DNA of 64,000 nt from Escherichia coli (GTDB lineage: Bacteria; Pseudomonadota; Gammaproteobacteria; Enterobacterales; Enterobacteriaceae). Shown here in pieces: positions 50,878 through 51,336 of this stretch; the stretch's first letter is position 1; each line of letters begins with the position of its first letter. Position numbers and translations under genes: made by a program. Under the pieces are notes generated by a model. That model did no database searches. It was not told where the DNA came from and worked only from the letters and a program-made list of their open reading frames with translations. The DNA is taken from NCBI RefSeq assembly GCF_044647545.1, contig NZ_CP172818.1; one strand, written 5' to 3'.

Positions 50878-50910
50878 GAAATGGCGCTTTAAGAAGCGCC
50901 ATTTTTTTAT
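50878..50910. terminator. Bidirectional rho-independent terminator between fdnI and yddM
   Basis: aatggcgc-tttaagaa-gcgccatt followed by TTTTTTTATT. Confidence 0.8.
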
Positions 50911-51191
50911 TGCGTAACCAGACGGCGCAGTCGCGACACATCCACCGTTTTTTCAGCCTCTGCCAGGCTCCAGGCGTTTTGCAGATTCAGCCACATTTGC
51001 GGCGAACTGCCGATCACCACGGAAAGTTTAATTGCCATTTCTGGCGTCAAAGCTGCTTTTCCGGTCAGCAATCGGCTTGCCGTTGAGGGAGCAATTTCCA
51101 TTGCTCTGGCAAACTCGCGCAGGCTGACATTAAGTTCGTCCAGTGATTCCTGAATAATGTCTCCTGGGCGGGGATGATTGGCCATTTTCAT
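50907..51191 (-). CDS. yddM: HTH (XRE/HigA-like) regulator YddM
   Basis: Track ORF 50907..51269; internal start [13 protein letters not shown] gives 94 aa; HTH segment [26 protein letters not shown]. Confidence 0.8.
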
Positions 51192-51336
51192 CAGTGTCTT
51201 TACTCTCAGTAGCGTTCCTTCACCAGGAACACTATCATTATTGTTCCTTCCTACGCAACAATAATCCATTTAGCCATTTCATGTTGGAGAGTGTGCGATG
51301 CTGCGACCCGAACATGGCAGTCGCAGCAAAGGCCTC

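Follow-up and report, generated by a model that had tools for sequence, protein, structure and literature searches.

yddM of Escherichia coli, an orphan HigA-family antitoxin gene whose higB partner was probably deleted

The yddM locus and its product

This study concerns a window of 64,000 nucleotides of Escherichia coli DNA from contig NZ_CP172818.1 ("the window" denotes this whole stretch throughout) and, within it, the gene yddM, which lies downstream of the alcohol dehydrogenase gene adhP and encodes a HigA-family antitoxin with no toxin gene beside it. An earlier note, made from the sequence of the same DNA, had pointed to this HigA-like protein and to a palindrome in the gap between the two genes. 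On the basis of the comparisons presented here, we put at roughly 85% the probability that yddM once belonged, as the antitoxin gene, to an old chromosomal HigB-HigA pair that lost its toxin gene by a clean deletion in this lineage, and that the palindrome is the terminator hairpin of adhP. The two genes lie as follows:

50907-51191, minus strand: yddM, a 94-aa HigA-family antitoxin and XRE-type helix-turn-helix (HTH) DNA-binding protein, with its ATG at 51191 and its stop at 50907
51337-52347, minus strand: adhP, alcohol dehydrogenase, the co-directional neighbour upstream of yddM (from the list of open reading frames and the RefSeq annotation of matching genomes)

With the adhP stop codon at 51337-51339, the gap between the genes extends from 51192 to 51336 and measures 145 bp, in agreement with the length given before. 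On its other side, yddM converges with fdnI, which is encoded on the plus strand and ends at 50857. A 1-kb stretch of the locus is 99.9% identical to E. coli strain FDAARGOS_497, and the strain is not K-12. The 94 amino acids of YddM are 100% identical to the 'antitoxin HigA' of PDB entries 2ICP and 2ICT, and the protein scores 93.7 bits against the HigA equivalog TIGR02607 (cut-off 47.7) and matches HTH_3 (PF01381) with E = 9e-10 (38.8 bits, cut-off 23), so that the likeness to XRE-type and HigA antitoxins noticed from the sequence is borne out. The RefSeq label in matching genomes reads 'yddM: HigA family addiction module antitoxin', and the HigA antitoxin structure was reportedly published in 2010.

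Searches for a partner toxin were negative throughout the window. A protein hidden Markov model (HMM) of HigB, built from 23 orthologues, gave nothing but negative-score noise against the six frames of 51151-51400, a HigB DNA HMM had no match in 50801-51500, and no HigB-like gene was found by tblastn elsewhere in the 64 kb; a single weak tblastn match (E = 0.001 in a tiny database) lies inside nhoA and was rejected as spurious. These results confirm that no toxin gene precedes yddM and answer the proposal of the earlier note to look for a degenerate toxin in all frames of the gap, where no remnant was detected. The orphan-antitoxin reading nevertheless stands, because the comparative data described below show a clean deletion. 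Of a complete type II toxin-antitoxin module, the window thus holds the antitoxin gene and no toxin gene, and yddM is neither placed directly behind nor translationally coupled to a HigB (PF05015) gene, as the gene for the identical protein is elsewhere.

The gap does contain short open reading frames (ORFs). The 25-aa ORF described before exists (51238-51315, minus strand), but to call it the only one was loose, as ORFs of 28 aa (51178-51264, plus strand), 48 aa (51194-51340, plus strand) and 29 aa (51279-51368, minus strand) also overlap the gap. Such frames of 25-48 aa would be the sole material for a small unannotated toxin still encoded in the gap, for example by the 25-aa ORF, or on the opposite strand, and we regard this as hardly credible: the 25-, 48- and 29-aa ORFs have no match in a Pfam scan, no frame of the gap matches the HigB profile (this six-frame search took in the 28-aa ORF as well), the ORFs span promoter and operator DNA and the adhP hairpin, and the gap differs among strains by an inversion, indels and a 29-bp deletion regardless of reading frame.

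The toxin gene in other strains and species

Some E. coli genomes, CFT073 among them, have an additional gene of 279 bp between adhP and yddM. It is annotated as a RelE/ParE-family toxin, and its stop codon overlaps the start of yddM as ATGA. The product, HigB, comprises 92 aa (MIMNFRHKGLRDLFLLGKTSGVIPTQVKRLRHRLAVIDAASCLADIDMPGYRLHPLSGDRDGIWAISVSGNWRITFEFVNGDAYILDYEDYH) and matches the HigB-like toxin family PF05015 with E = 1e-17. Over all 92 residues, the C-terminal YEDYH included, it aligns with HigB of plasmid Rts1, a ribosome-dependent endoribonuclease (PDB 4MCT_B, E = 8e-32), and it shares 56.5% identity with the Rts1-type HigB encoded on the IncT plasmid. Alignment of the window to the toxin-bearing alleles leaves a gap of 273-279 bp exactly at the position of higB, and a further ~50 bp, from the stretch that separates the adhP hairpin from the hig promoter, are likewise missing in the window. 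What is left in front of yddM is the following:

51192-51213, minus strand: leader left after the loss of higB; the 92-codon toxin ORF of other strains is absent, and of higB no more than the final 5-17 nt are left (CACTG before the ATG)

The description of a HigA-like protein without its partner is thereby supported, with a deletion as the cause, given that an intact higB-yddM pair occupies the same locus elsewhere. As a mechanism for this deletion, slippage between the similar start regions of higB and yddM (GATGATAATG and GATGAAAATG) was considered and rejected, because the window retains CACTG from the 3' end of higB. YddM is identical to the protein paired with intact HigB in CFT073, and neutralisation of the toxin by direct binding is a candidate property of it.

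The ATGA overlap with higB also sets the 94-aa start of yddM, in line with the annotation and with the crystallised protein, which has 94 aa too. The yddM frame remains open further upstream, to an ATG at 51269, and would give an extended form of 120 aa running through the promoter and operators. We rejected this start, as it crosses these elements and as a 29-bp deletion in strain MLI108K3 breaks its frame. An open stretch of 26 codons is expected by chance ~29% of the time (own arithmetic), and the upstream opening is probably accidental.

The distribution of the allele states was surveyed in 5426 complete E. coli genomes. A 1-kb query comprising the fdnI 3' end, yddM and the adhP 3' end matched 5413 of them and was covered to at least 80% in 5382, with match lengths falling into several classes. 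The counts were:

1331/5426 genomes (24.5%), including CFT073: higB DNA present
545 of the 1331, including O25b:H4-ST131: exact match to a 61-nt probe across a 1-nt deletion in higB
4030/5426 genomes (74%), including K-12, O157:H7 and HUSEC2011: toxin-less junction of the window type

The single-base deletion lies in the region of codon 33 and cuts HigB to 35 aa, as translated from strain AR_0086, in which RefSeq marks the gene as frameshifted. At least 545 genomes therefore have the frameshifted gene, so that ~40% of the E. coli genomes with higB DNA carry a dead copy, and higB without this frameshift is found in up to ~790 genomes, a figure to be read as an upper limit for intact higB. One record stands apart from these classes: in the O157:H7 strain TR01 the gap has the usual 145-bp length and is a patchwork, with toxin-type sequence after the hairpin, a window-type operator O1 (described below) in the middle and the last 47 nt of higB before yddM. 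The O157:H7 genome Z1769 carries the window-type junction over its full length at 95.6% identity, and the same-length mosaic of TR01 is more readily seen as an artefact of polishing with mixed reads than as a real allele.

To place these states in order, relatives of YddM were compared in one genome per species. The higB-yddM pair adjoins fdnI in E. albertii (with a toxin 100% identical to that of E. coli), in a cryptic Escherichia, and in 12 of 13 Citrobacter genomes (intact in 11, frameshifted in C. portucalensis), and it does so as well in Pluralibacter, in an Enterobacter-labelled genome and in an unclassified Enterobacteriaceae genome. In the 13th Citrobacter genome, that of sp. FP75, only a partly deleted higB is left. 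Cedecea, Buttiauxella, Chimaeribacter and Erwinia have likewise kept a toxin-antitoxin pair. Together with the low ratio of non-synonymous to synonymous divergence (dN/dS) of higB between Escherichia and Citrobacter (0.04-0.10), these outgroup pairs indicate that the module is old, vertically inherited and functional where present, and that the toxin-less state is derived. The opposite direction, with toxin-bearing alleles as insertions into an ancestral toxin-less locus, is contradicted by all outgroups so far. Loss of the toxin with retention of the antitoxin has occurred repeatedly, as seen from the partial deletion in Citrobacter sp. FP75 and the frameshift in C. portucalensis; two Xenorhabdus species hold toxin fragments and Chimaeribacter californicus no toxin at all.

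The history that we propose is as follows. A HigB-HigA module would have been passed down vertically beside fdnGHI since before the split of Escherichia and Citrobacter. The lineage shared by this strain, K-12 and O157:H7 would have undergone two deletions, one of the entire 92-codon higB and a second of the ~50 bp that separated the adhP hairpin from the hig promoter, the U-tract of the terminator among them.

Promoter and candidate operators of yddM

Between the leader and the palindrome, the window contains the candidate elements of a hig promoter:

51253-51258, minus strand: -35 candidate TTGCGT, read from the sequence, inside O1
51242-51260, minus strand: operator O1 candidate TGTTGC-GTAGGAA-GGAACA, from pattern match and conservation, overlapping the -35 candidate
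51231-51236, minus strand: -10 candidate GATAGT, read from the sequence, 16 nt downstream of the -35 candidate
51214-51231, minus strand: operator O2 candidate TGTTCC-TGGTGAA-GGAAC, an exact pattern match immediately downstream of the -10 candidate

An alignment of hig promoters from 17 loci in seven genera (Escherichia, Citrobacter, Cedecea, Buttiauxella, Pluralibacter, Chimaeribacter and Erwinia) revealed O1 as TGTT(G/C)C-N7-G(G/C)AACA and O2 as TGTTCC-N7-GGAAC, with half-sites that are invariant and spacers and flanks that vary freely. O1 takes the fully symmetric form GTTGCG…CGCAAC in three loci and reads TGTTCC…GGAACA in two, and the -10 position is occupied in orthologous promoters by GATAAT, GGTAAT, TATACT or GCTACT. 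O1 and O2 are all the matches to the dyad pattern in the 64-kb window. Both lie 40-110 bp nearer to yddM than the palindrome, and the earlier note was silent on them. In the allele studied here, O1 is moreover embedded in a perfect 9-bp inverted repeat, ATTATTGTT-N11-AACAATAAT (51237-51265).

The Rts1-type (IncT) hig promoter follows the same plan: a dyad operator of ~20 bp covers the -35 and another lies at -10/+1 (GTATTGCAC…GTGTAATAT, then TATAGT, then ATTACAC…TGTAATAC). For this promoter, experiments have established that HigA binds both O1, which covers the -35, and O2, which covers the -10 (PMC12266136). The half-sites differ, being TATTACAC in the Rts1-type promoter and TGTTCC here. For the K-12 locus, binding of the RNA polymerase sigma-70 holoenzyme in vitro has been reported in the yddM/adhP interval (PMC3946193). 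Taken together, the window appears to keep a complete hig promoter-operator that would now drive yddM alone, the two hexamers being putative, and the proposed promoter rests on conservation and not on consensus strength. By analogy with the solved HigA proteins, YddM would act as a dimer with one HTH per subunit and repress its own transcription by binding at two sites, O1 over the -35 and O2 directly behind the -10, as the Rts1-type HigA does on an identically laid-out promoter.

The O1 region itself varies between strains. The 11 nt between the ATTATTGTT and AACAATAAT arms, which form the O1 core, are reverse-complemented in strains W2-5, C7 and HUSEC2011 (GCGTAGGAAGG to CCTTCCTACGC), an inversion that flips the operator and keeps the dyad. 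Estimated from the spread of the rows, it may be present in very roughly a quarter of the toxin-less genomes.

The palindrome behind adhP

The palindrome singled out in the earlier note lies at the other end of the gap:

51299-51328, minus strand: adhP 3' hairpin with a 9-10 bp stem and a 10-12 nt loop, stem of the adhP intrinsic terminator, with the U-tract lost here

Its arms, gctgcgac (51300-51307) and gtcgcagc (51320-51327), extend to a perfect 9 bp (51299-51307 and 51320-51328) around a 12-nt loop, so that the perfect 8-bp repeat first described is real and slightly longer. A perfect inverted repeat of at least 9 bp with a loop of 3-20 nt is expected ~0.01 times in 145 bp (145 x 18 / 4^9, own arithmetic), which makes the palindrome more than a product of chance, and it is conserved in other species as well; the whole 64-kb window holds ~14 distinct perfect inverted repeats of at least 9 bp. 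The hairpin begins 9 nt past the adhP stop, leaving a spacer of 8 nt, and lies 108 nt before the yddM start; it folds with ~-17 kcal/mol (centroid structure, stem alone).

Comparison with other species and alleles revealed how this structure is maintained. Two Citrobacter genomes with an adjacent adhP keep the hairpin with another stem sequence (AAACGGCGAC…GTCGCCGTTT), and the Citrobacter hairpin folds well (z = -4.0). A consensus fold computed from 10 sequences predicts 9 pairs, of which three are preserved despite changes on both sides; two of the three are clean stem pairs, and the other is the wobble-type closing pair. The stem is followed by the U-rich CUGUUUUG in E. albertii and in toxin-bearing E. 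coli (UGUUUUG in the ancestral alleles) and by the likewise U-rich UUUGUUUUG in Citrobacter. In the window this U-rich tract is absent (GCAGC-AUCGCACAC), and a terminator scan does not call the palindrome. The loop varies between strains as well (TGCCATGTTCGG or TGCCAGTCCTGGT), and the TGCCAGTCCTGGT form adds an inner CCAG/CTGG stem and folds better (-24.2 kcal/mol, z = -2.9).

The earlier note had left a choice between an operator and the adhP terminator. An operator might be expected where a perfect 9-bp inverted repeat stands in the gap upstream of the gene for an HTH repressor, yet we consider it highly improbable that YddM binds here: the sequence (GCTGCGAC) is unrelated to the TGTTCC/GGAACA half-sites of every hig promoter, and the palindrome lies outside the conserved promoter block, 108 nt upstream of yddM in the window and >150 nt upstream of higB in the toxin-bearing alleles. 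It also stays with adhP, as Citrobacter loci that lack a neighbouring adhP show no copy in the 130 nt before higB, while the two Citrobacter loci next to adhP keep it in compensated form, followed by a U-tract. Its position after the stop codon, the compensatory changes, the U-tract in other alleles and the lack of likeness to hig half-sites all argue that the palindrome is the stem of the adhP terminator and not a YddM operator, and of the two options it is the terminator that finds support. The palindrome would thus stand outside the YddM circuit, as a stem-loop that ends the adhP mRNA. With the U-tract lost in this allele, read-through from adhP into yddM becomes plausible.

Some observations weigh against the reading of yddM as an orphan left with its own promoter by a clean deletion. 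The exact breakpoints of the deletion cannot be fixed, because the leaders of the toxin-less and toxin-bearing alleles have diverged. A sigma-70 consensus scan of 50700-51700 found no promoter, and the hexamers TTGCGT and GATAGT are weak. Binding of YddM to the candidate O1 and O2, and autorepression through them, is what we infer from the sequence. In the toxin-less strain MLI108K3, finally, a 29-bp deletion (~51214-51242) removes the -10 candidate and half of O2, with yddM intact, which suggests that yddM may also be expressed by read-through from adhP. This deletion, between two direct GGAAC half-sites, joins O1 to the right half of O2, and the same strain carries an IS200/IS605 transposase inserted between fdnI and yddM.

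Selection on yddM and its possible role

Although the toxin is gone, the sequence of yddM bears the mark of strong purifying selection in strains without higB. In eight toxin-less E. coli alleles, 12 sites of the gene segregate and all 12 are synonymous, an outcome with P ~5e-8 under neutrality, given 69 synonymous and 213 non-synonymous sites in total. Translation of 12 annotated E. coli loci, which cover all three allele states, yielded one and the same protein, and this is also identical between E. coli and E. albertii at a synonymous divergence (dS) of 0.24; against Citrobacter, yddM has a dN/dS of 0.03-0.09.

These data bear directly on the view of yddM as the decaying relic of a lost module with no function left. 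That the toxin which YddM served is gone fits such a view, and degraded modules are the presumed source of many orphan antitoxins (PMC7354431). Decay is nonetheless very improbable in view of the 12 synonymous and zero non-synonymous sites in the eight toxin-less alleles, of a single protein accession for yddM in 13 of 13 annotated E. coli loci, and of the presence of the locus in nearly all genomes of the survey (5413/5426 matching the 1-kb query, 5382 at a coverage of at least 80%). The operator half-sites are, furthermore, intact in six of the eight toxin-less alleles, the exceptions being MLI108K3 with its 29-bp deletion and the anomalous TR01 record, and YddM binds DNA in vivo in K-12, where it was validated by chromatin immunoprecipitation with exonuclease treatment (ChIP-exo) as one of ten new DNA-binding transcription factors (PMC6237786).

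A 2025 preprint describing a CRISPR interference (CRISPRi) single-cell screen in K-12 gives new regulatory connections for YddM, genetic interactions of yddM with stress regulators have been reported, and a yddM knockout, in an experiment without complementation, was hypersensitive to epetraborole. As hints, the ChIP-exo sites, the CRISPRi connections, the genetic interactions and the knockout phenotype make a role as regulator a candidate.

Selection could also act on neutralisation itself. In this anti-addiction scenario, orphan YddM would be kept since it neutralises HigB arriving on plasmids or mobile elements and blunts post-segregational killing. Candidates for such encounters exist in the HigB homologues on 539 plasmids, 99 of them Escherichia plasmids; orphan antitoxins are predicted anti-addiction agents (PMC7354431), and the whole of YddM has stayed unchanged, also outside the part matched by the HTH domain. 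We consider this scenario on its own unlikely, however, as 536 of the 539 plasmid homologues share <60% identity with the cognate toxin, the identity between YddM and the IncT/Rts1 HigA is only 40%, and type II pairs are usually insulated from non-cognate partners.

With no toxin to neutralise, YddM would, in the mechanism that we favour, be kept by selection as a stand-alone DNA-binding regulator and possibly also as a neutraliser of incoming HigB. We tentatively suggest, as a possibility that falls short of even odds, that it was exapted after the loss of the toxin, either as an autoregulated stand-alone regulator or as a standing defence against HigB, unchanged in about three quarters of E. 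coli, and that read-through from adhP may now also transcribe yddM. If true, such read-through would tie the former antitoxin to the expression of an alcohol dehydrogenase.

Variation beside the locus

The intergenic region between the convergent fdnI and yddM contains a further hairpin:

50878-50905: hairpin common to the convergent fdnI (plus) and yddM (minus), with a 12-pair stem, a 4-nt loop and a TTTTTTTATT tail in the terminator scan

For fdnI, this hairpin is a terminator with a T-run. The spacer in which it stands (50858-50906 in the window) differs between strains in the number of copies of a 178-bp unit that consists of REP-type palindromes and one copy of the terminator hairpin. There are 0 copies in the window, 2 in K-12 and apparently 1 in YZMc3, the last inferred from a match 179-180 bp longer than the query. 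An Rfam scan of the K-12 and toxin-bearing loci gave only sub-threshold REP-related matches, and the variation looks like ordinary REP/BIME copy-number polymorphism. Part of the neighbourhood also occurs in p1585m1_D (NZ_CP086392.1, 3301-6351), a linear 65-kb record labelled as a plasmid, with a fragment of maeA, the adhP gene and the first part of the gap to yddM, where IS26 cuts it off. Either IS26 captured this stretch from a chromosome or the contig is misassigned.

Relation to known systems and significance

The closest known counterpart is the HigB-HigA pair of CFT073 and of the adherent-invasive E. coli (AIEC) strain NRG857c, described as ParE-2/HigA-2 (TA20), with K-12 and HS encoding only the antitoxin partner at this locus (PMC7232551). 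It has the same antitoxin protein, the same adhP-fdnI locus and the same O1/O2 promoter core, from which the window differs by the missing 279-bp higB and the ~50 bp of upstream spacer. The HigB-HigA system of plasmid Rts1 from Proteus vulgaris (PDB 4MCT, 4MCX and 6CHV) shares the toxin-first order and the toxin family, and its HigA is an HTH antitoxin of the same kind as YddM (40% identical). The Rts1 module is plasmid-borne and has its toxin, whereas the E. coli module is chromosomal and vertically inherited, and in the window the toxin is absent.

Among orphan or anti-addiction antitoxins, chromosomal CcdA of Erwinia chrysanthemi offers a parallel in that YddM is likewise chromosomal and retained under selection and could act on an incoming toxin, although in Erwinia the ccdAB pair is complete and cross-neutralisation has been demonstrated, whereas for YddM it is hypothetical. 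A parallel for the regulatory role is PaHigA of Pseudomonas aeruginosa, a HigA-family HTH protein that regulates promoters beyond its own operon (mvfR, pel; PMC6987408), as YddM also has ChIP-exo sites. The two proteins are distant (E = 2e-8), PaHigA has a different operator (TTAAC-GTTAA), and it still has its toxin.

The orphan status of yddM in K-12 as compared with CFT073 and NRG857c is already published, and the HigA annotation and structure are also known. The present work contributes counts of how often each of the three allele states occurs among E. coli genomes, evidence on the ancestral state from other genera, two candidate operators, the attribution of the palindrome to adhP, and a test for selection. 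The O1 and O2 candidate sequences may be useful for interpreting the published YddM ChIP-exo data. With three states of higB at one locus within one species, E. coli provides a natural experiment on orphan antitoxins, and since the antitoxin is identical in the translated loci of all three states and under purifying selection after the loss of the toxin, the anti-addiction and regulator hypotheses are directly testable in standard strains.

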